Source: Bacillota bacterium
GTDB lineage: Bacteria; Sysuimicrobiota; Sysuimicrobiia; Sysuimicrobiales; Segetimicrobiaceae
Assembly: GCA_021324295.1 (NCBI GenBank)
Contig: JAJPJJ010000032.1
Location: 12,919 to 76,918 of the forward strand
Reading direction: 5' to 3'
DNA: 64,000 bases
The notes under the pieces were generated by a model, which was given only the letters and a program-made list of their open reading frames with translations, did no database searches and was not told the DNA's origin. Shown piece after piece: positions 33,400 to 54,518 of this stretch. Made by a program: the position numbers and the translations under genes. How positions within the stretch are numbered: position 1 is the first letter of the stretch; the number at the start of each line of letters is the position of its first letter.

Positions 33400-33674
33400 T
33401 CCGAAAGTGCCGCGCGTGGGCGCGGCAGCCACGCGCATCGCGACGAGGCCAAGCGGCCGTGGAGCCGAAGTGGGCGGCATCGGCCGCCCCGGGGGGCCGG
33501 GGCCTGGAACCGCGCACCACGACGTCGGAAGACGGCAGTGGAGCCGAGGCGCCCTCGATCGGCGCGGGGGCTTGCCGAAGAGGGTTTTGCGCCGGGCCCG
33601 CCTAACCCCGAAGGGGGTTCTGGGGTAAGGGATGCCGTCCCGCGCCGCAGAACACCCCCGAGGACGGTGACCAC

Positions 33675-35273: not shown

Positions 35274-36667
35274 GCCGCCGGCGGCCTGCCCGCGCGGGGA
35301 ACGGCCGACGCGCCGGCGGCGTGAGCGGGGCGGACCTCCGCCGGGAGATCGAGGCCAAGGGGATCAACCTGTTCGAGTGCTACACCTGCCGGCTCTGCAC
35401 CGAGGAGATGCAGCGCGGCATCCTGACGCTGACCGAGCCCTACCGCAAGGCGTTCGGGGAGGCCGAGTGGAGGCGCGACCTGTTCAACGAGCCGGTGTGC
35501 CCCACGTGGGACTACTACCGCCACGAAGCGTACACCGCCTACGGCCGGGCGCTCCTGGCCCGCGACCTGGCGGACGGCCTGGCGGTCGACCCGGCGGATC
35601 CCCGGCTGCGCGAGGTCGTGTACACCTGCCTGCTTTGCACCGGGTGCCAGGAGCTGTGCTTCTCCCGCAACCGCGTGCCGCTGATGAAGCCGTTCATGGA
35701 GCTGCCGCGCGAGGTCTGGGACATCCACGGGATCCTGCTGGCCGAGCGGAAGTGGCTGTTCGAGCGCCACGGCTGGGCCGCCGTGCCCGAGGGGCTGGCC
35801 GCGCTGGCGCAGCGGATCCTCCAGAGCGGCACCGCCACCGGCGAGCCGCGCCGCGGGGCGACGCGCTGGATCGAGGCCACCGGCAGCGAGGTCGTGGATC
35901 TCAGCCGCGCCGGGCGCGCCGACGTCCTCCTCCTGCTCGATGCGCAGGCGCCGTACGAGCGCGCGCTGTGGCCGGCGCTCGCCGCGATGGTGCGCCTGCT
36001 GCGCGCGGCGGGGCTGGTGGTGGGCGTGCTCGGCGCGGAGGAGATCGCCACCGGGCTCGCGGTGCTCGCGTGCGGCGACGTCCAGGACTACCTCCGGCTG
36101 AACCACGAGGCGGTCCGCCGCGTCGCGCAGGTCGCGGACCGCGCGGGGGTCGGATGCGTCGTCACGGTGGACGACACCGGGTACCTGGCGTGGACGGCGC
36201 CGGCCAAGCACTACGGGCTGGCCGGCGACCTCCCGTTTCCGTTCGCCCACGCCGTGCCGTTCCTCCACTCCCTGCTCGAGGAGGGCCGGGTGCCCCTCGT
36301 GCGGCCGGTCGAGATGGAGGTCGTGCTGCTCGACTCCTGCCACCTGGGACGGTACAGCAAAGTCCTCGACGCGCCGCGCCGGATCCTCGCCCGCGTGCCG
36401 GGCCTCCGCGTGCAGGAGGCGCACCTGCGGCGTGAGTACCTCTACTGCTGCGGCGCCGCGGCCGGGGTGCCGGAGGCCTATCCGGCGCAGGCCGCGTGGT
36501 GGGGCCGGAAGCGGCTGGGCCAGGCCCGGGAGGTCCTCCACACCGGGCGCACCGTGGTGACGACGTCGCTCGTCTGCGGCGCGCACCTGCGCCGGATCGC
36601 TGCGGGCACGGGCGATGCGCTCGAGGTGCGGGACCTCGCGGAGGTCGTGGCCGCGGCCCTGGCCTGA
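35270..36667 (+). CDS. Iron-sulfur protein with two 4Fe-4S motifs and two CCG domains (GlcF/HdrD/LldE-F-like)
   Basis: ATG 35270 overlaps the upstream TGA as ATGA. CYTCRLC…CP and CLLCTGCQELC ferredoxin-like motifs; CCG-type cysteine motifs …DSCHLGR… and …YLYCCGAAAG…. Confidence 0.75.
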   Translation: MSRRRPARAGNGRRAGGVSGADLRREIEAKGINLFECYTCRLCTEEMQRGILTLTEPYRKAFGEAEWRRDLFNEPVCPTWDYYRHEAYTAYGRALLARDLADGLAVDPADPRLREVVYTCLLCTGCQELCFSRNRVPLMKPFMELPREVWDIHGILLAERKWLFERHGWAAVPEGLAALAQRILQSGTATGEPRRGATRWIEATGSEVVDLSRAGRADVLLLLDAQAPYERALWPALAAMVRLLRAAGLVVGVLGAEEIATGLAVLACGDVQDYLRLNHEAVRRVAQVADRAGVGCVVTVDDTGYLAWTAPAKHYGLAGDLPFPFAHAVPFLHSLLEEGRVPLVRPVEMEVVLLDSCHLGRYSKVLDAPRRILARVPGLRVQEAHLRREYLYCCGAAAGVPEAYPAQAAWWGRKRLGQAREVLHTGRTVVTTSLVCGAHLRRIAAGTGDALEVRDLAEVVAAALA

Positions 36668-36678
36668 CGGGCGCACGT

Positions 36679-37869
36679 ATGTCGCAAAGGGGGGTGGTGA
36701 CCACGTTGCTGTCTGTGTCACGGAGGCTCGCCGGCATCGTCCTCGGGGTCGCCCTGGCCGCGGGGATCCTCGTGCCCGAACGCACCGTGCTCGGACAGGG
36801 AGCGCCGATCAAGATCGGCACGGTGTTCGCGGTGACCGGCCCGGCGAGCTCACTCGGCAAGCCGGAGAAGGATACGGCGACGATGCTCCAGGCGCAGCTC
36901 GCCGCCGCCGGCGGGGTGGGCGGCCGGCCGGTGCAGATCATCACCTACGACAGCGAGACGGATCCGACGAAGGCGCTGCTCCTCATGAAGAAGGCCGTCA
37001 CGGAGGACAACGTGACCGCGGTGGTCGGCGGGACGACGAGCCCGGAGTCGCAGGCGATGGCCGACTACGCGATGCAGGCGGACATCCCCTTCATGTCCGT
37101 GGCCGCGAGCACGACGCTCAGCGTCCCGAGCCGCGCGTGGGTGTTCCAGATGCCGCAGCGCAACAGCATCGCGGCCGCCAAGGCGGTCGAGTACCTCGCC
37201 GCCATCCACGCGCGGACGTTCGCGTTCCTCTATCGCAACGACGACTTCGGCCAGGACGGCCTCGTCGCGCTGCGGACGTACGGCGGGCAGCGCGGGATGG
37301 CGATCGTCGACGCGGAGCCGTTCGCGGCCACCGACACCGATCTGAGCGCTCAGGTCGCCCGCGCGCGGGTCAAGAACCCCGACGCGATGGTGGTCTGGAG
37401 CACGCCCCCGACCGCCTCGATTGCGGCCAAGGACATCCGGCAGCTCGGGATGCGGGTGCCGATCGTGGAGAGCCACGGCATCGCCAACAAGGCGTTCATC
37501 CAGCTCGCCGGCCCGGCCGCGGAGGGGGTCGTGTTCCCGTCGGGCAAGCTGCTCATCGCCGGCCAGCTCCCGGCGGACGACCCGCAGAAGGCGCTGCTCC
37601 TCCGCTACGCCAAGGATTTCGAGGCCGCGAACCACTACACGGCCAACACGTTCGGCGGCCACGCGTGGGACGGCCTCACGATGCTCCTCGACGCGATCCG
37701 GCACGTGGGCCCGGACAAGGCCCGGATCCGGGACTACGTGGAGCACGTGCGGGGGTTCATCGGCACGGGGGGCGTGTTCACCATGTCGCCGCAGGATCAC
37801 AACGGTCTGTCCACCCGCGACATGGCGCTCATCGTCATCCGGCACGGCGACTGGTCCCTCTGGAAGTAG
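36679..37869 (+). CDS. livK: Branched-chain amino-acid ABC transporter substrate-binding protein (LivK/LivJ-like)
   Basis: ATG 36679 verified in sequence. Signal peptide MSQRGVVTTLLSVSRRLAGIVLGVALAAG. Type-I PBP pattern …IKIGTVFAVTGPASSLGKPEKD…. Confidence 0.8.
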   Translation: MSQRGVVTTLLSVSRRLAGIVLGVALAAGILVPERTVLGQGAPIKIGTVFAVTGPASSLGKPEKDTATMLQAQLAAAGGVGGRPVQIITYDSETDPTKALLLMKKAVTEDNVTAVVGGTTSPESQAMADYAMQADIPFMSVAASTTLSVPSRAWVFQMPQRNSIAAAKAVEYLAAIHARTFAFLYRNDDFGQDGLVALRTYGGQRGMAIVDAEPFAATDTDLSAQVARARVKNPDAMVVWSTPPTASIAAKDIRQLGMRVPIVESHGIANKAFIQLAGPAAEGVVFPSGKLLIAGQLPADDPQKALLLRYAKDFEAANHYTANTFGGHAWDGLTMLLDAIRHVGPDKARIRDYVEHVRGFIGTGGVFTMSPQDHNGLSTRDMALIVIRHGDWSLWK

Positions 37870-37893
37870 CGGAGGAGGGTCCTCCGCCGCGCG

Positions 37894-38769
37894 ATGCTCG
37901 CCCTGCTGCCGCAGCTCGTGCTGACCGGGCTCACCGTCGGGAGCATCTACGCGCTCGTCGCCCTCGGCTTCGTCGTGATCTACAACGTCACAGGGATCCT
38001 GAACTTCGCGCAGGGCGAGTTCCCGATGCTGGGCGCGCTGCTGTGCGCCTCGCTGCTCGCCGGGGGGCTCTCCGTCCCCCTCGCCGCGGTCGCCGCGGTG
38101 GCGGCGGTCTGCGTCCTCGGGGCGCTCGTGGAGCGGCTGGCCGTGGAGCCGGCGTACGGGAGCCACCCGCTCACGCTGATCATCATTACCTTCGGCGTCT
38201 CGATGGCGTTCCGGGGTCTCGCCCTGATGGTCTGGGGCGCCGACCCGTACACGCTGCCGGAGTTCACGCCGGGCGCCCCGCTCGTGCTGTTGAGCGGGGT
38301 CCTCACCCGCCAGGCGGTCTGGGCGATCGGCCTGTCCCTCGCCGTCGTCGCCGCGCTGTTCCTGTTCTTCGCGTGCACGGTCCCGGGCGCCGCGGTCCGG
38401 GCGTGCGCCGACAACCCGTTCGCCAGCCGGCTCGTGGGCATCAGCCCGCGGCGGACGTCCCTGTTCGCGTTCACGCTGAGCGCCGGGCTCGGGGCGGTCG
38501 CAGGCATCGTGATCGCCCCCATCACCGGCGCCACCTATGACATGGGGCTGGGGCTCGGGCTCAAGGGGTTCGTCGCGGCGGTGATCGGCGGGCTGACCAA
38601 CGCGCCGGCCGCGGTCGTCGGCGGCTACCTCGTGGGGCTCATCGAGGCGCTCGCGACCGGCTTCCTCACACCCGGGTACAGCGGGGCGATCACGTTTCTC
38701 GTGCTCCTCCTCGTCCTGTTCCTCCAGCGGGAAGGGCTGCTCCATGGCGCCCAGCGCAGGCGGGCCTGA
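37894..38769 (+). CDS. livH: Branched-chain amino-acid ABC permease (LivH-like)
   Basis: …LTVGSIYALVALGFVVIYNVTGILNFAQGEF… is a canonical LivH N-terminus; eight TM helices. Confidence 0.85.
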   Translation: MLALLPQLVLTGLTVGSIYALVALGFVVIYNVTGILNFAQGEFPMLGALLCASLLAGGLSVPLAAVAAVAAVCVLGALVERLAVEPAYGSHPLTLIIITFGVSMAFRGLALMVWGADPYTLPEFTPGAPLVLLSGVLTRQAVWAIGLSLAVVAALFLFFACTVPGAAVRACADNPFASRLVGISPRRTSLFAFTLSAGLGAVAGIVIAPITGATYDMGLGLGLKGFVAAVIGGLTNAPAAVVGGYLVGLIEALATGFLTPGYSGAITFLVLLLVLFLQREGLLHGAQRRRA

Positions 38770-38801
38770 TACAGCCCGGCAGCCGCTTCCCGGCAGAGGC
38801 A

Positions 38802-38843
38802 GGGGGTGTGGGGTCTGTCCTTCGCTCCAGCCCCCACACCCCC
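38802..38843 (+). repeat. Perfect 12-bp G/C-rich inverted repeat (stem-loop) inside the liv operon, between livH and livM
   Basis: gggggtgtgggg at 38802-38813 and ccccacaccccc at 38832-38843, separated by an 18-nt loop. Confidence 0.35.
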
Positions 38844-38936
38844 TCCCACCCGCCGCCAGCCTAAGGCGAGCGTGTGGCAGCGCGATGTCGCCGGCGGCCG
38901 GCCGCAGCCGGAGCAGGGTCGAGGTTCGGTGATCCG

Positions 38937-40007
38937 ATGAGCGGGGAGCGCCTGGGGCTGGCCGCCCTCGCCGTGGCGCTCGCGGCGGTGCCGGCCCTCG
39001 CCCCCACCGCCTACGTCGTCACCCTCCTCAACGTCATCGGCCTGTACGCGATCGTCACCCTGGGCCTCATCCTGCTCGGATGCAGCGGACAGGTGTCGCT
39101 CGGGCAGGCCGCGTTCTACGGCCTGGGCGCGTACACCTCGGCGCTGCTCAGCCGGGACCTGGGATGGCCCCCCGCGGCGACCATCCCGCTCGCGCTCGGG
39201 CTCGTGGCCGGGACCGCCTACGTGGTGGGGGTGCCGACGCTGCGGCTGGCCGAGCACTTCTTCGTGCTCGCCACGCTCGGCGTCGGCATCATCGTCAACG
39301 TGCTGATGGTGCAGCTCGTGCCGCTCACGGGCGGGGCGAGCGGGCTGCGCGATATCCCCGGCCTCGCGCTGCCGGGCGTCCGCATCACCACGGACCGCCA
39401 GTTCTACTACCTCATCTGGACGCTCGTCTTCGTCACCCTCATCCTCGCGCGCAACATCACGTCCCACCGCACCGGCCGCGCCCTGCGTGCCATCCTCGGG
39501 AGCGAGGTCGGCGCCGCCGCGCTCGGGGTCGAGGTCTCCCGGTACAAGATGCACGTCTTCGTGCTGAGCGCCGTCTACGCCGCGCTCGCCGGCGCGCTGT
39601 ACGCCCACTACATCCGGTTCATCTCCCCCTCGCCGTTCTCGCTGTACGCGTCGCTGTTCTTCCTCATCATGGCGGTCGTGGGCGGCCTGACGAACATCTG
39701 GGGAGGCCTGCTGGGCGCGGCGGCGGTGACGATCCTCGACCAGATCATCCGGGCGGAGGTACCGCGCGTCTTCCCCCGCGTGGGAGGCGAGTACCAGACG
39801 GCGATCTACGGCATCCTCCTCGTGCTCATCATGATCTTCTTCCCCTCGGGCATCGTCCGCGGGGCGCTGGACCTGCGGCGGCTGCTCGTCCGCAGCGCCG
39901 CCCGCCCTGCCCCGGTCCCCGCCGGCGCCCAGGATCCGCCCACGCTCGGCGACCCGCCGCCCGTGGCGCCCCGGGCCAAGCCCGCCGACGGCGGAGGTGG
40001 GATGTGA
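38937..40007 (+). CDS. livM: Branched-chain amino-acid ABC permease (LivM-like)
   Basis: ATG 38937 verified in sequence. …YVVTLLNVIGLYAIVTLGLILLGCSGQVSLGQAAFYGLGAY… is LivM-like. The track ORF from 38874 adds an Arg-rich extension. Confidence 0.8.
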   Translation: MSGERLGLAALAVALAAVPALAPTAYVVTLLNVIGLYAIVTLGLILLGCSGQVSLGQAAFYGLGAYTSALLSRDLGWPPAATIPLALGLVAGTAYVVGVPTLRLAEHFFVLATLGVGIIVNVLMVQLVPLTGGASGLRDIPGLALPGVRITTDRQFYYLIWTLVFVTLILARNITSHRTGRALRAILGSEVGAAALGVEVSRYKMHVFVLSAVYAALAGALYAHYIRFISPSPFSLYASLFFLIMAVVGGLTNIWGGLLGAAAVTILDQIIRAEVPRVFPRVGGEYQTAIYGILLVLIMIFFPSGIVRGALDLRRLLVRSAARPAPVPAGAQDPPTLGDPPPVAPRAKPADGGGGM

Positions 40008-40804
40008 GCGGGGCCCTGCTCGAGGCGCAGGACCTCAGCCGGCGGTTCGGGGGCGTCGTCGCGCTGCGGCGGGTGAGCTTCGCCGTGGCGCCGCAGGAGA
40101 TCGTCGCGGTGATCGGACCGAACGGCGCGGGCAAGACGACGCTCTTCAACGTGGTCACAGGGCTGCTGGCGCCGACGGCGGGCCGGATCCGGTACCGCGG
40201 GGCCGACCTCGCCGGGCTGTCCCCGGCCCGGATCGCGGCGCTCGGAATCATCCGGACCTTCCAGAACCCGATGGTCTTCGGCGAGATGACGGTCGCGGAG
40301 AACGTGATGGTCGGCTGCCACCGGTGGACGCGGACCGGGCTGCTCGCCGCCGCGCTCGCACTGCCCGGGGCGATCCACGAAGACCGCCTCGTCTCCCGCG
40401 CGGCGCTCGAGGCGCTGGTCCTCGTCGGCCTGCGGGATCGCGCCGCGGATCCCGCCCGCGATCTGCCGGCCGGCCAGCAGCGCCTGCTGGAGATCGCCCG
40501 CGCGCTCGCAGCCCGCCCCACGCTGCTGCTCCTCGACGAGCCCACGGCGGGCCTGAGCGCCGGGGAGGCGCGCCACTTGGTCGAGGTCATCCGGCGGCTC
40601 CGGGCCGACGGCATCACGTTCATCGTCATCGAGCACAATATGGACGTCGTGATGGAGGCCGCCGATCGCGTCATCGTGCTCGACTACGGGGAGAAGATCG
40701 CGGAGGGGACGCCGCCGGAGATTCAGCGCGATCCGCGCGTCATCGCCGCCTACCTCGGCGAGGAGCCGGATGCGGTGCCGGCGGCCGGGGTGAGCCTGCC
40801 GTGA
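40004..40804 (+). CDS. livG: Branched-chain amino-acid ABC ATP-binding protein (LivG-like)
   Basis: GTG 40004 overlaps the livM stop as GTGA. Walker A GPNGAGKTT, signature …LPAGQQRLLEIARALA…, Walker B LLLLDEPTAGL. Confidence 0.85.
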   Translation: MSGALLEAQDLSRRFGGVVALRRVSFAVAPQEIVAVIGPNGAGKTTLFNVVTGLLAPTAGRIRYRGADLAGLSPARIAALGIIRTFQNPMVFGEMTVAENVMVGCHRWTRTGLLAAALALPGAIHEDRLVSRAALEALVLVGLRDRAADPARDLPAGQQRLLEIARALAARPTLLLLDEPTAGLSAGEARHLVEVIRRLRADGITFIVIEHNMDVVMEAADRVIVLDYGEKIAEGTPPEIQRDPRVIAAYLGEEPDAVPAAGVSLP

Positions 40805-41544
40805 CCGCGCCGCTGCTCGAGGTCTGCGGCATCAGGACCCGCCGCGGGGGCATCGAGGTCCTCCACGGGATCGATCTGGACGTCCGCGCGGGCGAGATCG
40901 TCGCGGTGATCGGCCCGAACGGCGCCGGAAAGTCCACCCTCCTCGGCACGATCGCCGGCGTGTTTCCGCCGGCGGGCGGCCGCGTGCGCCTGGCGGGTCA
41001 CGATCTCGGCCGGCGGGCAGCGGAGGAGATCGTGCGGATGGGAGTCTGCCTGGTCCCCGAGCGGCGGCAGATCTGGAGCGGCCTGACCGTCCGGCAGAAC
41101 CTGCTCCTGGGCGGGTACCACCGATACTGGCGCGATCGGGCGGGTGTGCGGGCGGATGTCGCGCGGCCGCTCCGGATCTTCCCGAAGCTGGCGGAGCTGA
41201 TCCACCGCGCCGGCGGGCATCTCAGCGGCGGTGAACAGCAGATGCTGGCGATCGCGCGGGGGCTGATGTCCCGGCCCCGCGTCCTGCTGCTCGACGAGCC
41301 CTCGCTCGGGCTCGCCCCGCGCGTCGTCCGGGAGATCACGCAGACGCTGGAGCAGCTGCGCCGGGCGGAGGGGCTCGCGGTCGTGCTCGTGGAGCAGAAC
41401 GTGAAGGCCGCGATGCTCGTCGCCGACCGGGTCTGCGTGATGGAGCGGGGCCGGATCGTGCTCCGCGGTCGGCCGGCGGAGCTGCTCGCGCATCCCGGTG
41501 TCCGCTCGGCCTACCTCGGCAAGGGATACGAGGTGGCGGGGTGA
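40801..41544 (+). CDS. livF: Branched-chain amino-acid ABC ATP-binding protein (LivF-like)
   Basis: GTG 40801 overlaps the livG stop as GTGA. Walker A GPNGAGKST, signature LSGGEQQMLAIARGL, Walker B LLLDEPSLGL. Confidence 0.85.
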   Translation: MTAPLLEVCGIRTRRGGIEVLHGIDLDVRAGEIVAVIGPNGAGKSTLLGTIAGVFPPAGGRVRLAGHDLGRRAAEEIVRMGVCLVPERRQIWSGLTVRQNLLLGGYHRYWRDRAGVRADVARPLRIFPKLAELIHRAGGHLSGGEQQMLAIARGLMSRPRVLLLDEPSLGLAPRVVREITQTLEQLRRAEGLAVVLVEQNVKAAMLVADRVCVMERGRIVLRGRPAELLAHPGVRSAYLGKGYEVAG

Positions 41545-41569
41545 GCGCGCGAGACGGCAGGGGCGCACG

Positions 41570-42565
41570 GTGAGCGCCGGGCGCGAGGCGGCGCCGGGGG
41601 ACCGCGACCGGGCCCGGGTGTTGATCGTCGGGTGCGGCGCGATCGGCGGCATCTACGCGGCGCGGCTCGCCCGGGTGGCGGACGTCTGCGTGCTGGACGT
41701 CTGGAGGGAGCACGTCGAGACGATCCGGGCCCGGGGGCTGCGCCTCGTGGTCCGGACGGAGGACGTCGCCGAGACCCTGACCGCGTACCCCTCCGCCGCC
41801 GCGGAGCCCGCGGCCCTCCCGCCGGGGCCGTGGAGCCACGCGCTCGTCGCGGTGAAGGGACCCGAGACGCGCGCGGCGCTGCGCGGGCTCGCGAGCCGCC
41901 TCGGCGGGGCGATCGTGCTGACGATCCAAAACGGGCTCGGCAACGCGGAGACGATCGCGGCCGCGTGCGACGCGCCGGTCTGCCAGGGGGTGACGATGAA
42001 CGCGGGCGAGGCGGCCGGCCCGGGCGAGATCCTCCAGACCGAGATCGGCCGGACGTGGCTCGGGCCCCACCGCGCCAGCCTCGAGGAGGCCCGGGCGTGG
42101 GGCGCGCTGCTGCGCCGGGCCGGCATGGCGGCCGATGTCCTCGAGGATCCGCGCGGAGCTGTGTGGGCCAAGCTGATCTTCAACTCCGCGGTGAACCCGC
42201 TCCCGGTGCTCACCGGCCTTCGCCTCTCGGAGGTCTACGCGGACCCGCACACGTACGCGCTCCTCCGCACGCTCGTGGAGGAGGGCACCGCCGTCGCCGC
42301 CGCGCTCGGGATCTCGCTGCCGCACGATCCGATGGCGGTGATCGACGCGCACCGGGCGCTGGGATCCGCCCACGCGCACGTCGGCTCGATGAAACAGGAC
42401 ATCGACCGGGGGCGGCCGACCGAGATCGAGACGCTCACCGGCGCGATCGTGGCCGCGGCCGATCGCGCGGGCGTGCCCGCGCCGGCGCTGCGCACGGTGT
42501 ACCGCCTCGTCAAGGCGATCGAGGCGCGGAGGGCGACCTCCGCCGGCGCGCCCGTGCCGCCATGA
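41570..42565 (+). CDS. 2-dehydropantoate 2-reductase family (ApbA/PanE-like ketoacid reductase)
   Basis: GTG 41570, 25 nt after the livF stop. …RVLIVGCGAIGGIYAARLA… Rossmann motif and the …GSMKQDIDRGRPTEIETLTGAIV… C-terminal block of the KPR family. Confidence 0.75.
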   Translation: MSAGREAAPGDRDRARVLIVGCGAIGGIYAARLARVADVCVLDVWREHVETIRARGLRLVVRTEDVAETLTAYPSAAAEPAALPPGPWSHALVAVKGPETRAALRGLASRLGGAIVLTIQNGLGNAETIAAACDAPVCQGVTMNAGEAAGPGEILQTEIGRTWLGPHRASLEEARAWGALLRRAGMAADVLEDPRGAVWAKLIFNSAVNPLPVLTGLRLSEVYADPHTYALLRTLVEEGTAVAAALGISLPHDPMAVIDAHRALGSAHAHVGSMKQDIDRGRPTEIETLTGAIVAAADRAGVPAPALRTVYRLVKAIEARRATSAGAPVPP

Positions 42566-43452
42566 CGCGCCGCACGCCGCGACGCCTGCGCCCCCGCCGC
42601 GCGCAGCACGCGCCGTCCCCGCCGCGGCCGTCGCCCCGGGACGCCGGCGGGCCTCCGCGGCGGCGCTACCTCGTCAACGCGGTCGAGCGAGCGCTCGGCA
42701 TCCTCGAGCACGTCGACGGCAGCGCGCGCGGCACGGGCATCACCGAGCTGAGCCGGCGGCTCGGGCTGGGGAAGAGCACCGTGCACCGGCTCTGCGCGAC
42801 GCTCGAACACCACGGCTATCTGATCCGCGATCCCGCCACCGGCCGCTACCGGCTGAGCCTGCGCGTCTTCCAGATCGGCAGCACGGCGCTCAGCGACCTG
42901 GGCCTGCCGGCTCGCGCGATGCCCGCGCTCGAAGACCTCGGCGCCTCCGTCCAGGAGACGGTGCACCTCGCGATCCTCGACGGCAGCGAGATCGTGTTCA
43001 TCGGCAAGGTGGAGAGCTCCCGGCCGCTGGGCCTGTATTCCCGGGTGGGGCGCCGCTCCCCGGCGCACTGCACGGCGCTCGGCAAGGTGCTGCTCGCGCA
43101 CGCGGCGGCGGAGGCGCGCGCGCACGTGCTCTCCCGACCGCTCGCGCGCTACACGGCCGCGACGATCACCACGCCGCAGGCGCTGGAGCGCGCGCTGGAC
43201 GAGGTCCGCCGCCGCGGATACGCCGTGGACGACCAGGAGTTCGAGGACGGCGTTCGCTGCGTGGCCGCGCCGGTCCGCGACCACAGCGGCCGCGTCGTGG
43301 CGGCGCTCAGCGTCTCGGCGCCCGCGGGCCGGCTGCCGCGCGGCCGCGTCCCGTCCCTCGCCGAGCAGGTCGTGGCCGCCGCCCGGCGCGTCTCGCGGGA
43401 GCTCGGGTGGCTGGAGCCGCAGGCCGCGGAAGGGGCGCGCCGTGGGACGTGA
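42562..43452 (+). CDS. IclR-family transcriptional regulator
   Basis: ATG 42562 overlaps the upstream TGA as ATGA. HTH …LGILEHVDGSARGTGITELSRRLGLGKSTVHRLCATLEHHGYL… followed by an IclR effector domain. Confidence 0.8.
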   Translation: MTRRTPRRLRPRRAQHAPSPPRPSPRDAGGPPRRRYLVNAVERALGILEHVDGSARGTGITELSRRLGLGKSTVHRLCATLEHHGYLIRDPATGRYRLSLRVFQIGSTALSDLGLPARAMPALEDLGASVQETVHLAILDGSEIVFIGKVESSRPLGLYSRVGRRSPAHCTALGKVLLAHAAAEARAHVLSRPLARYTAATITTPQALERALDEVRRRGYAVDDQEFEDGVRCVAAPVRDHSGRVVAALSVSAPAGRLPRGRVPSLAEQVVAAARRVSRELGWLEPQAAEGARRGT

Positions 43453-45271
43453 CCGGGCCTGGCTGATCGGCGGCCGCACGGGCGAGGGCGTGGACTCGGC
43501 CGGCGACGTGTTCGCGCGCGCGGCGGCGCGGTGCGGGCTGGAGGTGCACACGTTCCGGCTGTTCCCGCCGATCATCAAAGGCGGGCCCACCTCCTACGAG
43601 GTGCGAATGGCCGAGCGCCCCCTCTACGCGCGCAGCGACGCGCTCGACTGCGTCATCGCGCTGGACGACGAGACCGTCGCCCGCCACGCGCCGGCGCTGC
43701 GGCCCGGCGGGCTCCTCGTCGTCGACGACCCCAGGGTCACGGCCCGCCCGGGGACGGCGCCGGACGTCGCGGTGTGGCCCGCGCCCCTCACCGCGCTGGC
43801 CCGGGAGGCAGGCGACGGCATCATGCGGAACATCGTCGCCCTCGGCGTCTCCGCCCGCCTCCTCGGCCTCGACAGGGCGGTGCTGCAGGAGACGGTCCGC
43901 GAGCGCTTCGCCGGCAAGGGCGCGCAGGTGTGCGCGCGGAACGTCGCCGCGGTGGACGCCGGGTGGCGCCACGCGGAGGCGCATCCGGATCGGTGGCCCC
44001 CCCTCGGGACGGCGGGGGGCGCGCGGGGCGCGGACGCCCGCGGCGCACCGTGCCGGATGCGGTATCTCCTGTCGGGCAACGACGCGATCGCGCTCGGCGC
44101 GCTCGCCGCCGGGTGCCGGCTGTACGCCAGCTATCCGATCACGCCGGCGAGCGACGTGCTGGAGTGGATGGCCGAGCACCTGCCGGAGGTCGGCGGCGCG
44201 GCGTTCCAGACCGAGGACGAGATCGCCGCGCTCGGCATCGTGCTCGGCGCCGGCTACGCCGGCGTGCGGGCGATGACCGCGACCTCGGGCCCCGGCCTCT
44301 CGCTGATGACCGAGACGCTCGGGCTGGCCGGGATGGCCGAGATCCCGGCCGTGATCGTCGCCGCGCAGCGCCCCGGGCCGAGCGCCGGGATGCCCACCAA
44401 GCACGAGCAGAGCGACCTGCTGCACATCGTCTTCGCATCGCACGGCGAGTTCCCCCGCATCGTGCTCGCCCCCGGGACCCTCGAGGAGTGCTTCCTCGAT
44501 ACGGCGCTCGCGTTCAACCTCGCGGAGCGGTACCAGTGCCCGGTGATCGTCGCGGCGGACCAGGACCTCGTGCTGAAGAAGCGGACGGTCACGGGCCTGC
44601 CGGTGGAGGAGGTCCGCATCGACCGGGGCGAGCGGCTGAGCGACGACGAGGCCGCCGCGCTCGGGAGGGCGTACCGACGGTACGCCCTGACCCCGAGCGG
44701 CATCTCGCCGCGCGCCGTGCCGGGGCAGCCGGGCGCGGTGTTCCTGAGCAGCGGCGACGCGCACGACGACCGGGGCGTGATCGACGTGGAGGACCCGGCC
44801 GTCCGGCGGGCGATGGTGGACAAGCGCCTGCGCAAGACGCGCGCGGTGTGGGCGGACGTCAGCGGGACCCGCGTCGAGGGAGACGGCGACCTCCTGGTCG
44901 TCTCCCTCGGCTCGCCGTGCGGCCCCGTACGGGAGGCGCTCGCGCGGTTGGCCCGGGACGGCGTGCGCGCGCGCTTCCTGCAGGTCCGGTGCCTGTGGCC
45001 GTTTCCGACGCACGAGATCGGGCCCGAGGTGGCGCGGGCCCGGCGCGTCGCGGTCGTCGAGCACAACGCGACCGGTCAGCTCGCGACGCTCGTCCTCGCG
45101 CAGGTCGGCGGGCACGGCAAGATCGCCGGGGTGCGCAAGTACGATGGGCTCCCGTTCACGCCGGGCGAGGTGGAAGGCCGCCTCCGCGAGATCATCGGCG
45201 GGGACGGCCGCATCGATCGTCTGGCTGCCGAGGTGCGGCGGTGCTCGTCTCACGACTCCGGCGCCAGCTAG
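43442..45271 (+). CDS. 2-oxoacid:ferredoxin oxidoreductase, fused gamma-alpha subunit (KorA/VorA-type)
   Basis: GTG start overlaps the iclR end by 11 nt. The N-terminal ~190 aa is a POR gamma-type domain (…LIGGRTGEGVDSAGDVFARAAARCGLEVHTFRLFPPIIKGGPTSYEVRM…). The alpha domain follows (…RYLLSGNDAIALGALAAGCRLYASYPITPASDVLEWMAEHLPEVGGAAFQTEDEIAALGIVLGAGYAGVRAMTATSGPGLSLM…). Confidence 0.8.
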   Translation: MGRDRAWLIGGRTGEGVDSAGDVFARAAARCGLEVHTFRLFPPIIKGGPTSYEVRMAERPLYARSDALDCVIALDDETVARHAPALRPGGLLVVDDPRVTARPGTAPDVAVWPAPLTALAREAGDGIMRNIVALGVSARLLGLDRAVLQETVRERFAGKGAQVCARNVAAVDAGWRHAEAHPDRWPPLGTAGGARGADARGAPCRMRYLLSGNDAIALGALAAGCRLYASYPITPASDVLEWMAEHLPEVGGAAFQTEDEIAALGIVLGAGYAGVRAMTATSGPGLSLMTETLGLAGMAEIPAVIVAAQRPGPSAGMPTKHEQSDLLHIVFASHGEFPRIVLAPGTLEECFLDTALAFNLAERYQCPVIVAADQDLVLKKRTVTGLPVEEVRIDRGERLSDDEAAALGRAYRRYALTPSGISPRAVPGQPGAVFLSSGDAHDDRGVIDVEDPAVRRAMVDKRLRKTRAVWADVSGTRVEGDGDLLVVSLGSPCGPVREALARLARDGVRARFLQVRCLWPFPTHEIGPEVARARRVAVVEHNATGQLATLVLAQVGGHGKIAGVRKYDGLPFTPGEVEGRLREIIGGDGRIDRLAAEVRRCSSHDSGAS

Positions 45272-45443
45272 AGGCGTGGGGGTGGGGCCTGCCCTCCGCT
45301 CCCAGCCGACGCGGTCTTCGCTTCGGAGCGGCGGGCGGGCGGAAATCGGCGCGCCGACCGGAGTCCGCGCCGGACAGGTCCCCGTCCCCCTCCCCGCGCC
45401 GCCACCGGATATCGGCAACGGAGCACTACCAGGGGGGCCAGCG

Positions 45444-46319
45444 ATGGCGACGGCGCTGACGTTCAAGGACTTCGCCGGGCAGAAGGCGATGTGGTGCCCG
45501 GGGTGCGGCGACTTCGCGGTCCTGCGCGCCCTGCAGGAGGCGTGCGCCCGGCTCGCCCTGCCCCCGCACCGCATCGTGCTGGTCTCCGGCATCGGCTGCT
45601 CCGGCAAGATCACGTCGTACTTCTCGTCCTACGGGTTCCACGTGCACCACGGACGGACGCTGCCGATCGCCACGGGGATCGCCCTCGCCAACCGCGACCT
45701 CGCGGTGATCGCCGCGGGCGGCGACGGAGACGGGTACGGGATCGGCCTCAACCACCTCATCCACGCGATCCGGCGCGACGTGGACCTCACCTACGTCGTG
45801 ATGGACAACGGGGTCTACGGCAACACGAAGGGCCAGACGTCCCCGACGACGGTGGCGGGGACCATCACCCCCTCGTCCCCCTCCGGGGCGGTCGAGGAGC
45901 CGGTCCACCCGCTCCGGCTCGCGCTCGCCGCCGGGATCACGTACCTCGCCCAGGGTGTGAGCAGCGACGTCCCGCAGCTCGTGCGGCTCATCGCAGGCGG
46001 CATCGAGCACCGCGGGTTCGCGCTCATCAACGTGCTGAGCCCCTGCCCGACCTACGACCGCCTGCGCACGTATCAGTGGTGGCGGGCGCGCCTCGTGAAC
46101 CTCGACGAGGAGCCGTCGTACCGCCCGGACTCGCGCGAGCTGGCGGTGGAGGCGGTCTCGAGCCGCGATGCGTCGATCGTCGGGCTCGTCTACCGGGCCC
46201 CGGGGCGGCCGTTCCAGAGCCGCCTGCCCCGCTTTCGCCCTTCGCCGCTCGCCTCCGAGCGGCTCGCGCCGGATGGGGAGCGGGCCCGGCGGATCCTCGA
46301 CGCGCGGTACGCCGTATGA
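45444..46319 (+). CDS. 2-oxoacid:ferredoxin oxidoreductase beta subunit (TPP-binding)
   Basis: ATG 45444 verified in sequence. …WCPGCGDFAVLRALQEA… and the TPP motif …GGDGDGYGIGLNHLIHAIRRDVDLTYVVMDNGVYGNTKGQ…. Confidence 0.85.
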   Translation: MATALTFKDFAGQKAMWCPGCGDFAVLRALQEACARLALPPHRIVLVSGIGCSGKITSYFSSYGFHVHHGRTLPIATGIALANRDLAVIAAGGDGDGYGIGLNHLIHAIRRDVDLTYVVMDNGVYGNTKGQTSPTTVAGTITPSSPSGAVEEPVHPLRLALAAGITYLAQGVSSDVPQLVRLIAGGIEHRGFALINVLSPCPTYDRLRTYQWWRARLVNLDEEPSYRPDSRELAVEAVSSRDASIVGLVYRAPGRPFQSRLPRFRPSPLASERLAPDGERARRILDARYAV

Positions 46320-47647
46320 GCGCCCCGAGCCCGCCCCCCGGCGACCCGGCCCTCTTCGTCGACCGCACGCTGGAGACGATGAGCCGGGAGGACCTCGTCG
46401 AGTACCAGTGGCAGCGGCTGGCCCCGATGCTCGGCCGGATCCTCGAAGGCAACGCCTTCTACGGCCGGAAGTGGGCCGGCACCGTGCGCCACGCGCGCGG
46501 GATCCGGGGGTGGGACGAGTTCCGGAGGCTCCCGTTCACCACGAAGGCCGAGCTCGCCCGCGACCAGGCGGAGCATCCGCCGTTCGGCACGAACCTGACG
46601 TACCCGCTGGAGCGCTACGTGCGCTTCCATCAGACGTCCGGGACGACCGGCCGCCCGATGCGCTGGCTGGATACGGCGGAATCGTGGGACTGGTGGATCC
46701 GCTGCTGGACCTTCGTATACCGGGCCGCCGGCGTCGGCGCCGGCGACCGGATCTTCTTTGCGTTCTCGTTCGGGCCGTTCGTCGGATTCTGGGCCGGGTT
46801 CGACGCGGCCCGGCGGGTCGGGGCGCTCGCGATCCCGGGCGGGGGGCTCGACTCGCGGCTGCGGGTACGGATGCTGGTCGAGACGCAGCCCACCGTGCTC
46901 GTGTGCACGCCATCCTACGCGCTGCGGCTGGCCGAGGTGGCGCGGGCGGGGGACGTCGATCCCGCGGCGCTCGGGATCCGGGTCACGATCCACGCCGGCG
47001 AGCCCGGGGCGAGCATCCCGGCGACCCGCCGGCGGATCGAGGCGGCCTGGGGCGCGCGGTGCATCGACCACACCGGGCTCACCGAGGTCGGCGCGACCGG
47101 GTTCACCTGCGCCGCGGGGCAGGTGCACCTCACCGAGAGCGAGTTCATCGCCGAGGTCCTCGACCCCGAGCGCGGGACGGTGAGCCCGGACGGCGAGGGC
47201 GAGCTGGTGCTGACCAACCTGGGACGGGAAGGCTCCCCGGTGGTCCGGTATCGCACCGGCGACCGCGTCCGGCTCAGCGTCGAGCGGTGCCCCTGCGGCC
47301 GCACGTTCGCGCGGATGGTCGGCGGCATCCTCGGACGAGCCGATGACATGCTGGTCGTGCGCGGGATGAACGTGTTCCCGAGCACCATCGAGGACGTCGT
47401 CCGGCGGTTTGCCTGTGTCGACGAGTTCCGGATCGAGGTGCGGCGGCGCGCGGAGATGGCGGACCTCCGCGTCGTGGTGGAGGTCGACGACGCGCGCCAC
47501 GGGCCGGAGGTGGTCGCGCGGACGCTCGCCGACCTGCGCGAGCAGCTCCGGCTCGCCTGCGGCATCCGAATCGACGCGCACGCGGTGACCGCGGGCACGC
47601 TCCCGCGATTCGAGCTGAAGGCCCGACGGGTCGTGCACATCGAGTAG
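46316..47647 (+). CDS. Phenylacetate-CoA-ligase-family (PaaK-like, AMP-forming) aryl/acyl-CoA ligase
   Basis: ATG 46316 overlaps the upstream TGA as ATGA. …RFHQTSGTTGRPMRWLDT… AMP-binding motif and PaaK-family N-/C-terminal blocks (…EYQWQRLAPMLGRILEGNAFYGRKW…). Confidence 0.85.
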   Translation: MSAPSPPPGDPALFVDRTLETMSREDLVEYQWQRLAPMLGRILEGNAFYGRKWAGTVRHARGIRGWDEFRRLPFTTKAELARDQAEHPPFGTNLTYPLERYVRFHQTSGTTGRPMRWLDTAESWDWWIRCWTFVYRAAGVGAGDRIFFAFSFGPFVGFWAGFDAARRVGALAIPGGGLDSRLRVRMLVETQPTVLVCTPSYALRLAEVARAGDVDPAALGIRVTIHAGEPGASIPATRRRIEAAWGARCIDHTGLTEVGATGFTCAAGQVHLTESEFIAEVLDPERGTVSPDGEGELVLTNLGREGSPVVRYRTGDRVRLSVERCPCGRTFARMVGGILGRADDMLVVRGMNVFPSTIEDVVRRFACVDEFRIEVRRRAEMADLRVVVEVDDARHGPEVVARTLADLREQLRLACGIRIDAHAVTAGTLPRFELKARRVVHIE

Positions 47648-47697
47648 CATTACGGCGGCCAGGCGCCCCCTCGACAGCGCGGACGCGTCCTCGGGCC

Positions 47698-48759
47698 CTA
47701 CGCTCGCGGGCGGTGGCGCGCCATGATCCGCTGAACCTCGTCCAGCGGCAGAGCGTGGACCGTGCCCCGCCGACCCTCCATCGTCTCCGCGGCGGTGAGC
47801 GCGTTCAAGATGGACTCTTCCACCGCCTCCGCGACCGCCTCGAAGAACGGATCCAGGTGCTCGTGGGGGATCATCTTCAGATCGTAGGGGCCCGCGGGCG
47901 GGTCCGGCATGTGGTTGCCGGTGGCAAACGCGAGGAACAGGTCGCCGCTGCTGTTGAACCCCATCCCCCCAACGCGCGCCAGCCCGGCTGTCGCCCGCCG
48001 GGCGAGCCGCGCGCACTGGACGGCCAGGAGCGGCGCGTCGGTGGCGATGACCACGATGATCGATCCTTTGGGGTCGGACGAGGACGCCTGCCGGCGTTCC
48101 AGCTCCATTCCGACGGGAACGCCGTCGATGCGCAGGTCGCGCAGCCGGCCGTAGTTGGCCTGCACCAGCGCGCCGATCGTGTACCGGCCGCTCGGGCTGT
48201 CGACGAGCCTGGACGACGTCCCGATGCCTCCCTTGCAGCCGTGGCACCGCATCCCGGTGCCGCCGCCGACGTTGCCCTCCTCGACCGGCCCCCCGTGGGC
48301 CGCGGCGAGCGCCTCGAGCGCGTGCTCCCGCGACACGGGGAACGCTTCGATGTCGTTTAGAAAGCCGTCGAAGGTCTCCGCCACCACCGGCAGGTGGAAC
48401 CGGTGGCTGTACCCATGCGCGATCGCGTACGCCACGAGCGCGTCGCGCACGATCCCGACCGCGTAGGTGTTGGTGATCCCGATCGGCGACCCGAGCAGGC
48501 CCGACTCCTCGATCCAGGGGATCCCGGTCATCTCCCCGTTCCCGTTGAACGAGTGGTAGCCCGCGAAGGCGTAGTCGGTCCAGATCGCGCCCTCCCGCGG
48601 CACGATCATGGTCACGCCGGTACGCGTGATGCGCGGCCGATCGTAGACGAGCGTCCGGTGGCCGACCAGCACCCCCGGCACGTCGGTGATCGCGTTGTAC
48701 GCCCCGGGGGGCATCCGGCCGATCGTGATTCCGAGGTCGCGCAGGCGGGCGCGGCCCAT
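47698..48759 (-). CDS. Peptidase S58 / DmpA-family (L-aminopeptidase D-Ala-esterase/amidase; Ntn-hydrolase)
   Basis: ATG 48759..48757 behind a GGGAGGAG RBS. …GITIGRMPPGAYNAITDVPGVLVGH… and the autoprocessing site …GNVGGGTGM…. The upstream 65 aa of the track ORF is Arg-rich noise. Confidence 0.75.
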   Translation of the reverse strand: MGRARLRDLGITIGRMPPGAYNAITDVPGVLVGHRTLVYDRPRITRTGVTMIVPREGAIWTDYAFAGYHSFNGNGEMTGIPWIEESGLLGSPIGITNTYAVGIVRDALVAYAIAHGYSHRFHLPVVAETFDGFLNDIEAFPVSREHALEALAAAHGGPVEEGNVGGGTGMRCHGCKGGIGTSSRLVDSPSGRYTIGALVQANYGRLRDLRIDGVPVGMELERRQASSSDPKGSIIVVIATDAPLLAVQCARLARRATAGLARVGGMGFNSSGDLFLAFATGNHMPDPPAGPYDLKMIPHEHLDPFFEAVAEAVEESILNALTAAETMEGRRGTVHALPLDEVQRIMARHRPRA

Positions 48760-48838
48760 CAAGCTCCTCCCTATCGCGCGATGGATGCGGCGGGCATCGG
48801 CAAGGGGCGTCCGTGATACGCTGGGACGCTCAGGCCAC

Positions 48839-49132
48839 TCAGGGCAGGGCCGATACGATCTTGCGGTACTCCTCCTCGGTGAACGCTCGCAGCGTCTCGG
48901 TGCGGATGTAGCCCTGTGACGCCGCACCGAGCGCGCCGGCGGCCGCCACCTCATCGTTGGGCGCTTCGACGATCGTCACCGCATCGTATCGCCCCATCGT
49001 GAGGTAGAACGCCTTGATCTCCGCGCCCCTCTCGCGGGCTCGCTGCTTCGCCGCGGCGAGCCGCTCGGGGCCTTCCTTGATGTTCTCGGCGCCCTTCTGG
49101 GTGAAGGTGATGAGCGTGATGTACGTGGGCAC
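48839..49132 (-). CDS. GYD-domain protein
   Basis: 97 aa: MPTYITLITFTQKGAENIKEGPERLAAAKQRARERGAEIKAFYLTMGRYDAVTIVEAPNDE… matches the GYD family end to end. GTG start. Confidence 0.7.
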   Translation of the reverse strand: MPTYITLITFTQKGAENIKEGPERLAAAKQRARERGAEIKAFYLTMGRYDAVTIVEAPNDEVAAAGALGAASQGYIRTETLRAFTEEEYRKIVSALP

Positions 49133-49225
49133 GGTGGTCCACCCCCTTTTTTGCCTCTCCGCGCACGCCCCCTGCCATGGCGCTACTTCGGGCGGCGTCG
49201 TCCCCTGCCCTCCGCGCCCGGCGTC

Positions 49226-51339: not shown

Positions 51340-51579
51340 GAGAGGCACCTCCGGGCACGATCGCGACACGCCAGAGGGGCGCGGGAGGAGCCGGCCCGCG
51401 CGGCCCCCTGCCGTCCACGGCCGGCACATTTCAGGCCGGCGCGGCGGATCTCCTCCCCGTCTCCCCGGGGCTCGCGGCTCCGCTCTACGGCAGCCCGGCG
51501 ATCGGCGGGGTCATGGGGCGGGGCCTGCCCGGAGCGGAGGCCAAGCCCCGCCCGTCGGCTGGGTCCGTCGCTCGCCGGC

Positions 51580-53645: not shown

Positions 53646-53682
53646 CCGACCTCCCTCCAGCGCGCCCCTCGTTACCGGCGGC

Positions 53683-54441: not shown

Positions 54442-54518
54442 CGCGGGGCGGTGGCAGGCGCGCGATCCCGCCCGGCGCGGAGCTGCTCTCCGACGGGTGC
54501 GTCGCCCCGCGCCCCTCG

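Follow-up and report, generated by a model that had tools for sequence, protein, structure and literature searches.

The Pad pathway leads through a ligase, an alpha-oxidation, and a phenylglyoxylate oxidoreductase to benzoyl-coenzyme A (benzoyl-CoA) (PMC5109826), and the step from phenylglyoxylate to benzoyl-CoA has been described as unclear in Desulfococcus multivorans (PMC5109826). KorAB, a two-subunit 2-oxoacid:ferredoxin oxidoreductase (OFOR), lies within the benzoyl-CoA gene clusters of Thauera aromatica and of some strains of Rhodopseudomonas palustris, and it reduces ferredoxin, in T. aromatica for benzoyl-CoA reductase (PMC9973337). p-Cresol methylhydroxylase (PCMH) and 4-hydroxybenzoyl-CoA reductase (HCR) together form the known anaerobic p-cresol module of Geobacter and Thauera (PMC1924859). 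We describe here a gene cluster in a 64,000-nucleotide (nt) stretch of a bacterial genome (positions 12,919 to 76,918 of contig JAJPJJ010000032.1, assembly GCA_021324295.1; hereafter, the window), in which genes for a Liv-type importer, a two-subunit OFOR, a PaaK-family CoA ligase, a PCMH-type flavoprotein, and an HCR-type reductase stand side by side. A row of 10 genes (36679-47647) makes up the core of this conserved, probably catabolic supercluster of ~22 kb (window positions ~25439-47647) in an uncultured soil bacterium.

Proposed pathway

We tentatively propose, with somewhat less than even confidence, that the cluster imports tyrosine-derived para-hydroxyphenyl acids, converts them to CoA thioesters, and passes these through 4-hydroxybenzoyl-CoA to benzoyl-CoA. 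The candidate acids are of the 4-hydroxyphenylacetate, 4-hydroxyphenylpyruvate, 4-hydroxyphenyllactate, or 4-hydroxyphenylglyoxylate type. The proposal draws on the protein families, on diagnostic residues, on synteny, and on the genes that surround homologues elsewhere, and every substrate and the order of the steps are our deductions from these. The Liv-type ABC system would import the aromatic acid, and the PaaK-family ligase would turn the free acid into an aryl-CoA. The two-subunit OFOR would convert an aryl-2-oxoacid (4-hydroxyphenylpyruvate and/or 4-hydroxyphenylglyoxylate) to an aryl-acyl-CoA by oxidative decarboxylation, with reduction of ferredoxin. The PCMH-type flavoprotein and its Fe-S partner would oxidize the benzylic carbon of a para-hydroxyphenyl substrate through quinone-methide chemistry, the PanE-family enzyme would interconvert 2-hydroxy and 2-oxo acids, the HCR-type reductase would remove the para-hydroxyl with the ferredoxin reduced by the OFOR, and the IclR regulator would control the unit.

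Gene organization and conservation

Because the window has a G+C content of 73%, genes were called with a third-position G+C frame plot, and the calls were compared with the public gene calls of the matching contig (JGI 3300005532 Ga0070739_10000137, 157 kb), which does not differ from the window over 36316-47647. Both sources agree on 10 plus-strand genes within 36679-47647 (Table 1) with five overlapping junctions, namely, GTGA at 40004 and 40801, ATGA at 42562 and 46316, and 11 nt at 43442-43452. An initial annotation of this DNA had described the same co-oriented row with nine genes and four overlaps; the row itself stands, and the counts are corrected here. Its family assignment of every gene was confirmed by Pfam and NCBIfam, and it was right that the IclR gene is embedded in the row and overlaps both neighbors and that the longest gap is 172 nt (45272-45443); the next longest is 167 nt (38770-38936). 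The unit does not, as had been thought, begin at livK: two conserved co-oriented genes, which overlap each other by 4 nt, lie upstream and end 11 nt before the gene for the substrate-binding protein (SBP). A scan for sigma-70-like promoters and plus-strand terminator-like sites found none within 33300-48200, which is weak evidence in this organism. The five overlaps and the conserved order in relatives support the earlier reading of the row as a probable operon.

The ligase gene is the last of the plus-strand unit, and the next gene is convergent; the window carries S58 peptidase, GYD, and metallo-beta-lactamase-fold genes there on the minus strand (47698-49969). Relatives usually have a second complete Liv-type transporter directly 3' of the ligase gene (for example, L087:11390-15995), which the window lacks.

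Window proteins were compared by tblastn with 80 genome loci found with the ligase and 15 metagenome loci found with the flavoprotein, and six context look-ups were added; loci carry L numbers below. The order of the ten genes is kept, at ~63 to 88% amino acid identity, in L013, L014, L087/L098, L092/L106, L099/L104, L101, L103, L105, L108, L109, and L112. Since this order recurs in more than 10 contigs, the arrangement is conserved far beyond chance. The whole supercluster likewise recurs in more than 10 contigs at 63 to 89% identity, with HCR beta, alpha, and gamma genes (with or without IclR2) on one side and, divergent from them, genes for the PCMH-like flavoprotein, the CCG-domain Fe-S protein, the SBP, LivHMGF, PanE, IclR, the OFOR alpha and beta subunits, and the ligase on the other. 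In those contigs the plus-strand unit always begins with the 532-amino-acid (aa) FAD protein and the CCG/Fer4_8 Fe-S protein, and the reductase trio is divergent from the unit in more than 8 contigs.

Some relatives carry fewer of these genes. L007 has the Liv, OFOR, and ligase genes without the PCMH-like, CCG, PanE, and IclR genes and with no HCR gene within 10 kb; L008 and L010 have the Liv and ligase genes without the OFOR; and on the short L012 contig, LivF is followed directly by the ligase. Across relatives, the PanE, IclR, PCMH-like, and CCG genes are present or absent as a set, and this co-occurrence suggests a shared role with enzymes of 2-oxo and 2-hydroxy acids.

Table 1. Genes and repeat copies of the cluster and its flanks, with window coordinates and the basis of each assignment
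Feature	Coordinates	Strand	Basis
E1 beta, thiamine pyrophosphate (TPP)-dependent 2-oxoacid dehydrogenase/decarboxylase	25439-26404	-	Pfam Transket_pyr; pyruvate dehydrogenase (PDH) E1 beta subfamily 333 bits (cut-off 321)
E1 alpha	26420-27427	-	Pfam E1_dh; NCBIfam 286 bits, below cut-off
NMO/FabK-like FMN oxidoreductase	27424-28551	-	Pfam NMO 269 bits; FabK 255 bits (cut-off 453)
HCR-type beta/FAD subunit	28601-29617	-	NCBIfam HCR best, 285.3 bits (cut-off 404.6)
HCR-type alpha/Mo subunit	29685-32186	-	NCBIfam HCR best, 884.7 bits (cut-off 994.6); XdhA 533
HCR-type gamma/2Fe-2S subunit	32183-32725	-	NCBIfam HCR best, 190.5 bits (cut-off 257.8)
DinB_2-family protein	32884-33399	+	Pfam; first plus-strand gene after divergent intergenic region
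PCMH/VAO-type flavoprotein, 532 aa	33675-35273	+	PchF match, 463 bits, full length
Fe-S protein, CCG + Fer4_8 (GlcF/HdrD/TfrB-like)	35270-36667	+	Pfam; weak similarity to TfrB C-terminus
SBP	36679-37869	+	Pfam/NCBIfam
LivH-like permease	37894-38769	+	Pfam/NCBIfam
LivM-like permease	38937-40007	+	Pfam/NCBIfam
LivG ATPase	40004-40804	+	Pfam/NCBIfam
LivF ATPase	40801-41544	+	Pfam/NCBIfam
PanE/ApbA-family oxidoreductase	41570-42565	+	Pfam/NCBIfam
IclR regulator	42562-43452	+	Pfam/NCBIfam
OFOR alpha	43442-45271	+	Pfam/NCBIfam
OFOR beta	45444-46319	+	Pfam/NCBIfam
PaaK-like ligase	46316-47647	+	Pfam/NCBIfam
Repeat copy 1	38810-38833	+	Within long hairpin, LivH-LivM 167-nt gap
Repeat copy 2	45284-45307	+	172-nt OFOR alpha-beta spacer
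Repeat copy 3	51526-51549	-	Intergenic, strong hairpin

The HCR-type reductase and the OFOR

The beta subunit encoded in the divergent operon carries a four-Cys insertion (C124, C140, C148, and C157; spacing, 16/8/9) that is kept in L097, L098, and L099, while the beta gene call of L089, with its later start, retains three of these Cys residues; XdhB models align to the subunit in two pieces that flank this loop. The spacing matches that of the extra [4Fe-4S] loop of T. aromatica HcrB and, to our knowledge, such a loop in the FAD subunit is unique to HCR within the xanthine-oxidase family. Because the beta subunit carries this HCR-type loop, we read the enzyme as a ferredoxin-dependent, low-potential reductase.

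The OFOR is a two-subunit enzyme of the KorAB/StOFOR type. Its alpha subunit has domains III-I-II and scores 611.8 bits against TIGR03710 (cut-off, 482.8), its beta subunit scores 287.1 bits against TIGR02177 (cut-off, 261.9), and Pfam finds no Fer4/ferredoxin domain in either. The motifs YPITP, WCPGCGDF, GIGCSGK, SPCPTY, and GDGDG...NGVYG are intact, and the Arg equivalent to R344a of StOFOR1 is present. The enzyme falls well below the models for the 2-oxoglutarate equivalogs (NF007206, 224.7 bits, cut-off 579; NF007207, 173 bits, cut-off 364), for IOR (TIGR03336, 62.6 bits, cut-off 650.9), and for PadG and PadI (56.1 and 38.8 bits, cut-off 700), and it has two subunits rather than the five of PadEFGHI. 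Its orthologues are 70 to 81% identical, after which identity falls sharply to 57% or less, and the clade is marked by the signature FPPIIKGG...GPSAG...SGDEHD.

At the specificity positions defined for StOFOR1, we compared this clade with the 2-oxoglutarate oxidoreductase (KOR) of M. marinus (residues from the 6N2N alignment and the discussion in Yan et al. 2016) and with the mainstream KorA-like group. At S41a and the next residue, the clade has P-I (P43-I44) against A-E in the KOR and S-R in the mainstream group; at T349a, it has A (A315) against T in both; at D468a, D (D439) against L in the KOR and S/V/L in the mainstream group; and, compared with the KOR alone, K against R at K49b and N against L at L123b. 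These five differences from 6N2N speak against a KOR specific for 2-oxoglutarate, though the enzyme may still accept that substrate, and the pocket looks more hydrophobic, or less polar, than those of the 2-oxoglutarate enzymes. The earlier suggestion that this OFOR is no 2-oxoglutarate enzyme of the tricarboxylic acid cycle and works with the ligase on aromatic 2-oxoacid/acid pairs gains support, with a parallel in the Chloroflexota locus L022: after a homologous Liv transporter, the slot is held there by a genuine IorAB (714 bits; cut-off, 651), accompanied by a ligase close to PaaK (554 bits; cut-off, 646). The initial annotation also held such an enzyme to be unexpected in an apparent aerobe. 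That surprise falls away because the (alpha-beta)2 OFORs without a ferredoxin domain have been described from aerobes and are relatively O2 tolerant (PMC5020499).

The chief rival to our proposal takes the OFOR for a 2-oxoglutarate or pyruvate:ferredoxin oxidoreductase that does nothing but regenerate ferredoxin for the HCR-type reductase, with the rest of the cluster serving a para-hydroxy-aromatic pathway (for example, of 4-hydroxybenzoate or p-cresol). KorAB enzymes inside anaerobic aromatic clusters are established (PMC9973337), the best solved match of the OFOR alpha subunit is the M. marinus 2-oxoglutarate enzyme (385 bits), the Actinomycetes metagenome-assembled genome (MAG) L080 has an unrelated OFOR at a distance of 5 kb from an HCR-ligase pair, and a beta subunit of the HCR type needs a low-potential donor. 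The pocket, however, differs from those of both the M. marinus KOR and the mainstream KorA-like group, L007 keeps an OFOR between its Liv and ligase genes with no HCR nearby, and most HCR-ligase pairs of other phyla have no OFOR in their vicinity. We regard this explanation as possible, if rather doubtful.

The PCMH-type flavoprotein and its Fe-S partner

The flavoprotein matches PchF (1dii/1wve) best over its full length, followed by VAO and the eugenol oxidases. Tyr95, Tyr473, and Arg474 of PchF are conserved as Y96, Y472, and R473; these residues form the phenolate-binding triad of PCMH. The position of the covalent-FAD tyrosine (PchF Tyr384) is, by contrast, held by Leu386, so the enzyme departs from the PchCF type with its 8-alpha-O-tyrosyl-FAD and cytochrome c, and the loss of Tyr384 fits an Fe-S protein in the place of the cytochrome subunit. 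Orthologues (84 to 89% identical) occupy the same position in 14 contigs. The Fe-S protein gene is joined to the flavoprotein gene by an ATGA overlap and always follows it in relatives, and its product is probably the electron acceptor of the flavoprotein. We also considered the pair as the glycolate oxidase subunits GlcD and GlcF, as the Pfam domains FAD_binding_4 and CCG would allow, and rejected this because GlcD models score 47 to 68 bits (cut-offs, 568 to 897) against 463 for PchF.

These genes also invite a reading in which p-cresol or another 4-alkylphenol is the substrate: the flavoprotein would make an aldehyde, 4-hydroxybenzoate would follow, and the ligase and reductase would act on the latter, which leaves the Liv, PanE, and OFOR genes as accessories or unrelated passengers. 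The p-cresol module of Geobacter and Thauera, the closeness of the flavoprotein to PchF, and the pairing of ligase and HCR genes across phyla, which fits activation of 4-hydroxybenzoate, all agree with it. We nevertheless think it unlikely, given a cluster with neither an aldehyde dehydrogenase nor a cytochrome c subunit, a flavoprotein that has lost Tyr384, an ABC importer with a carboxylate-type ligand encoded between flavoprotein and ligase, and the variation of the PanE, IclR, PCMH-like, and CCG genes as one set.

The transporter, ligase, and PanE-family enzyme

The importer has the architecture of the HAAT/Liv type (a Peripla_BP_6 SBP, two BPD_transp_2 permeases, and LivG- and LivF-like ATPases with the BCA_ABC_TP_C tail), and it had been annotated as a transporter of branched-chain amino acids. 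That label is not borne out. The SBP scores 71.5 bits against the model for high-affinity branched-chain amino acid SBPs (NF011933; cut-off, 477) and so stands outside LivJ/LivK. Its best sequence matches in the PDB are 4dqd and 3sg0 (166 bits), followed by CouP-type proteins, with the Escherichia coli LivJ and LivK chains at 55 to 70 bits. A Foldseek search with its AlphaFold (AF2) model (pLDDT 92.5) places complexes with 3-phenylpyruvate (4DQD), p-coumarate, and caffeate among ranks 1 to 14, the remaining titles of which name no ligand, and LivJ at rank 15. In L007, L008, and L010, the orthologous transporter (78 to 82%) adjoins genes for HpaB (an equivalog at 696 bits; cut-off, 480), an HpaC-like flavin reductase, an extradiol dioxygenase, an FAA hydrolase, and a DHDPS-family protein, and in cultured Kyrpidia spormannii a homologous transporter (45 to 46%) sits in a similar 4-hydroxyphenylacetate cluster. 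The substrate is thus predicted to be, probably, an aromatic carboxylate and not a branched-chain amino acid. Given the sequence and fold matches of the SBP and the Hpa-gene neighbors of related transporters, the most likely cargo would be a para-hydroxyphenyl C2 or C3 acid.

The ligase (~440 aa) has AMP-binding and AMP-binding_C_2 domains, and its residues 9 to 440 align with the PaaK structure 2y4o, which places it in the PaaK-like subgroup (ANL class I). The earlier label of a PaaK-type ligase is therefore sound as to family and too narrow as to function: the protein scores 242.6 bits against TIGR02155 (cut-off, 646) and 248.7 against NF041878 (cut-off, 700), far below the PaaK equivalogs, and is equidistant (~200 bits) from PaaK1/2, 2-hydroxyisobutyryl-CoA synthetase, and BT_0428. 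Among 71 loci that belong to other phyla, 35 place a homologue of the ligase (49 to 63% identity) directly beside HCR-like gamma-alpha-beta genes; these 35 span Binatia, Chloroflexota, Limnocylindria, Rokubacteria, Thermodesulfobacteriota, Verrucomicrobia, and Actinomycetes, and the neighboring genes are mostly 59 to 75% identical to the reductase genes of the window. Relatives of the ligase at 63 to 64% sit with HCR-like, Liv, and paaA/C/D-like genes. Because so many loci from other phyla pair the two, we take the conserved partner of the ligase to be the HCR-type reductase and not the OFOR, and we predict a PaaK-family CoA ligase for aryl-carboxylates.

The PanE-family enzyme belongs to the ApbA subfamily (TIGR00745, 213.5 bits; cut-off, 141), lies below the cut-offs of all equivalog models, and has 3hwr as its best PDB match (134 bits), so a putative NAD(P)-dependent oxidoreductase of 2-oxoacids and 2-hydroxyacids is as far as we would name it. 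The regulator has the Pfam domains HTH_IclR and IclR_C and falls below the cut-offs of the BhcR, KdgR, and PcaR/PcaU models.

The initial annotation had read these genes as a self-contained module, of branched-chain or aromatic amino acids, that interconverts amino acid, 2-oxoacid, and acyl-CoA, possibly in reverse by reductive carboxylation. The family of the transporter, the resemblance of an OFOR next to a PaaK-family ligase to the IOR-PaaK pairs exemplified by L022, and the capacity of PanE-family enzymes to be general alpha-keto-acid reductases (bioRxiv 10.1101/2024.01.05.573888) are in keeping with such a module. It would, however, have neither an aminotransferase nor an amino-acid dehydrogenase, its SBP resembles the aromatic-acid binders far more than the LivJ/K models, and the conserved unit extends to the PCMH-type, Fe-S, and divergent HCR-type genes, with conserved partners (PCMH-type, HCR-type, or Hpa genes) that all belong to para-hydroxy-aromatic catabolism. 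The genomic context lends no support to reductive carboxylation towards amino acids, and we consider the module as a whole quite improbable.

Long gaps and a GC-rich repeat

Both long gaps contain the GC-rich motif GGGGNCTGNCCTNCGCTCCNAGCC, of which the window has three copies (Table 1), all intergenic and each within a strong hairpin. The chance expectation is 0.03, a figure that overstates the excess, as the pattern was derived from the same two gaps. No copy occurs in 1.5 Mb of other related loci, and the repeat may be a genome-specific element of the REP (repetitive extragenic palindromic) kind. Because the LivH-LivM and OFOR alpha-beta gene pairs overlap in L087 and L092, the long gaps seem to have arisen from lineage-specific insertion of the repeat and not as conserved internal promoters. 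An OFOR alpha C-terminal tail of ~25 to 30 aa followed by a long spacer before the beta gene is confined to the window (45182-45443) and its closest relative, L007 (8772-8946), the spacer of which is unrelated in sequence. The folding energies of the two long gaps are no better than those of shuffled sequence (z = -0.2 and -1.3). An alternative GTG start at 45276 for OFOR beta, which would close the 172-nt gap, was rejected since all orthologues start at a Met equivalent to ATG 45444, and a riboswitch or other known RNA was likewise dismissed after Rfam returned nothing but a spurious sub-threshold match to an internal ribosome entry site.

The least credible reading, that independent small operons (transporter, PanE-IclR, OFOR, and ligase) without a common function are packed together here, could appeal to modular relatives (L007 without PanE and IclR; L008 and L010 without the OFOR) and to internal promoters that the two gaps could hold, but it is opposed by the five translational overlaps, the order kept in more than 10 contigs, and the origin of the gaps argued above.

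Weighing the proposed pathway

Several observations weigh against the pathway that we propose. The specificities assigned in it draw on homologues of 25 to 45% identity or on gene context, and the SBP shares no more than 29% identity with 4DQD, which binds phenylpyruvate. The HCR model is the best for all three reductase subunits, yet each lies below the equivalog cut-off, which leaves the trio outside the HcrCAB equivalogs. The OFOR clade has no characterized member, and its nearest outgroups (47 to 57%) occur in nonaromatic contexts, namely, with beta-oxidation genes in L093, and in L095. We know of no report in which a PCMH-type enzyme oxidizes 4-hydroxyphenylacetate or the corresponding CoA ester. 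A scan of the six-frame translation for CxxCxxCxxxC[PAG] found no ferredoxin gene in the window, which also holds no aldehyde dehydrogenase or benzoyl-CoA-degrading genes. Because L007, L008, and L010 keep only subsets of the genes, the parts can exist apart, and the steps may follow another order than the one given. Finally, the flavoprotein gene of the window is broken by an in-frame TAG at 34233-34235, which leaves fragments of 186 and 344 aa. The window has T at 34233, where G (GAG, Glu) stands in all public copies, and this is its sole difference from Ga0070739_10000137 in 21.4 kb; the TAG may be a real variant, mark a pseudogene, or reflect an error in this copy of the sequence.

A more specific form of the proposal makes the cluster, in a soil phylum so far uncultured, an O2-independent and redox-self-balanced way of turning 4-hydroxyphenylacetate or 4-hydroxyphenylpyruvate into benzoyl-CoA, in which the flavoprotein/Fe-S pair and the PanE-family enzyme would replace PadBCD, the two-subunit OFOR would replace the five-subunit enzyme, and its ferredoxin would feed the HCR-type dehydroxylase. 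We judge this version doubtful.

Neighboring and accessory features

An E1 pair stands at the end of the divergent operon with no E2 or E3 gene alongside. L098, L101, L104, L106, and L107 likewise carry it beside their reductase genes, and a Kyrpidia locus (L096:14892-16960) has an E1 alpha/beta pair as well, after the homologous Liv transporter in the 4-hydroxyphenylacetate cluster; the pair may be a decarboxylase of arylpyruvate or arylglyoxylate. The NMO/FabK-like gene is missing from L098 and is not found in all relatives, and the DinB_2-family gene, present in L099/L104 and absent from L098, is likewise restricted to some of them. In L103, L105, L108, and L112, an insert of ~5 kb separates IclR2 from the PCMH-like gene; it was considered as a relevant part and set aside, as its CAP-domain and sortase genes are unrelated.

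Some 25 kb upstream, the window encodes a UbiD-family decarboxylase (5984-7525, plus strand), a bicupin (9544-10809, minus strand), and a UbiX-like flavoprotein (10529-11350, plus strand), with TctABC and MFS transporters beside them. This could be a set of aromatic-acid (de)carboxylase and dioxygenase, and it suggests a wider aromatic-acid island. Between them, a 128-aa open reading frame (9072-9458, plus strand) with a weak partial match to MoCoBD_1 (22.5 bits) may be the remnant of a molybdenum-enzyme gene. Downstream, three luciferase-like monooxygenase genes, a CofE-like F420 ligase gene, and a cupredoxin gene (52740-57600, minus strand) point to F420-dependent redox chemistry in the organism. 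At 50463, within a minus-strand SBP_bac_1 gene, the window has C where all six public copies have T. Outside the window, a pPIWI_RE module (pPIWI_RE_Z and pPIWI_RE_X/MID/RNaseH; L093:1-4252) lies beside the 52% OFOR homologue and is unrelated to the cluster.

Comparison with known systems

Each part of the cluster is of a known family, and the combination, the Fe-S-partnered PCMH-type enzyme without the covalent-FAD Tyr, and the distinct OFOR clade appear to be undescribed in the searchable literature. If the proposed pathway is true, the cluster supplies candidate enzymes for unassigned steps in anaerobic degraders of aromatic acids without Pad enzymes, PCMH/VAO-type chemistry reaches para-hydroxyphenyl substrates that bear a carboxyl group and gains a new partner for electron transfer, and an abundant uncultured soil lineage has ferredoxin-dependent, CoA-based aromatic catabolism where close relatives have the aerobic Hpa route. 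If it is false, what is left is an ordinary, well-conserved catabolic gene cluster. The labels "Liv/BCAA transporter" (BCAA, branched-chain amino acid), "PaaK," "PanE," and "KorAB" in such clusters mislead the metabolic reconstruction of MAGs.

The aromatic-acid SBPs of R. palustris (CouP family; 3SG0 and 4DQD) share the Peripla_BP_6 fold with the SBP of the window and are its best sequence and structure matches, at an identity of just 25 to 29%. With StOFOR1/2 of Sulfolobus tokodaii and the M. marinus KOR, the OFOR shares the III-I-II plus VI layout, YPITP, the carboxylate-binding Arg, a single [4Fe-4S], and the TPP motif (PMC5020499), and it lies roughly as far from each of the two as from other clades; it has the Asp (D468a) and Lys (K49b) of StOFOR in common and differs by Pro, Ala, and Asn at S41a, T349a, and L123b. 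Like the KorAB of Thauera and R. palustris, it is a two-subunit OFOR inside an aromatic CoA-thioester cluster with a ferredoxin-dependent reductase; unlike there, the consumer is of the HCR type, no benzoyl-CoA reductase is seen, and the pocket is not that of the solved 2-oxoglutarate enzyme. The Liv-IorAB-PaaK operon of L022, the Liv proteins of which are 40 to 54% identical to those of the window, has the same order of transporter, oxidoreductase, and PaaK-family ligase, whereas the window has a KorAB/StOFOR-type OFOR and a ligase from another PaaK-family clade. In common with PchCF and the p-cresol module of Geobacter and Thauera, the window has a full-length PchF homologue, with the triad, close to HCR genes, and it differs in having an Fe-S CCG protein for the cytochrome c, a Leu for the covalent-FAD Tyr, and no aldehyde dehydrogenase.

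It is the Pad pathway of Thauera, Azoarcus, and Aromatoleum (PadJ, PadBCD, PadEFGHI, and then HCR) that has the same logic as the one proposed here (PMC5109826). The cluster has no Mo enzyme of the PadBCD type, in place of which stand the PCMH-type flavoprotein, the Fe-S protein, and the PanE-family dehydrogenase, and its OFOR, unlike PadEFGHI, has two subunits and no ferredoxin domain. What the two would share is a PaaK-family ligase, benzylic oxidation to an arylglyoxylate, a TPP/Fe-S oxidoreductase that yields an aroyl-CoA, and the reductive removal of the para-hydroxyl.

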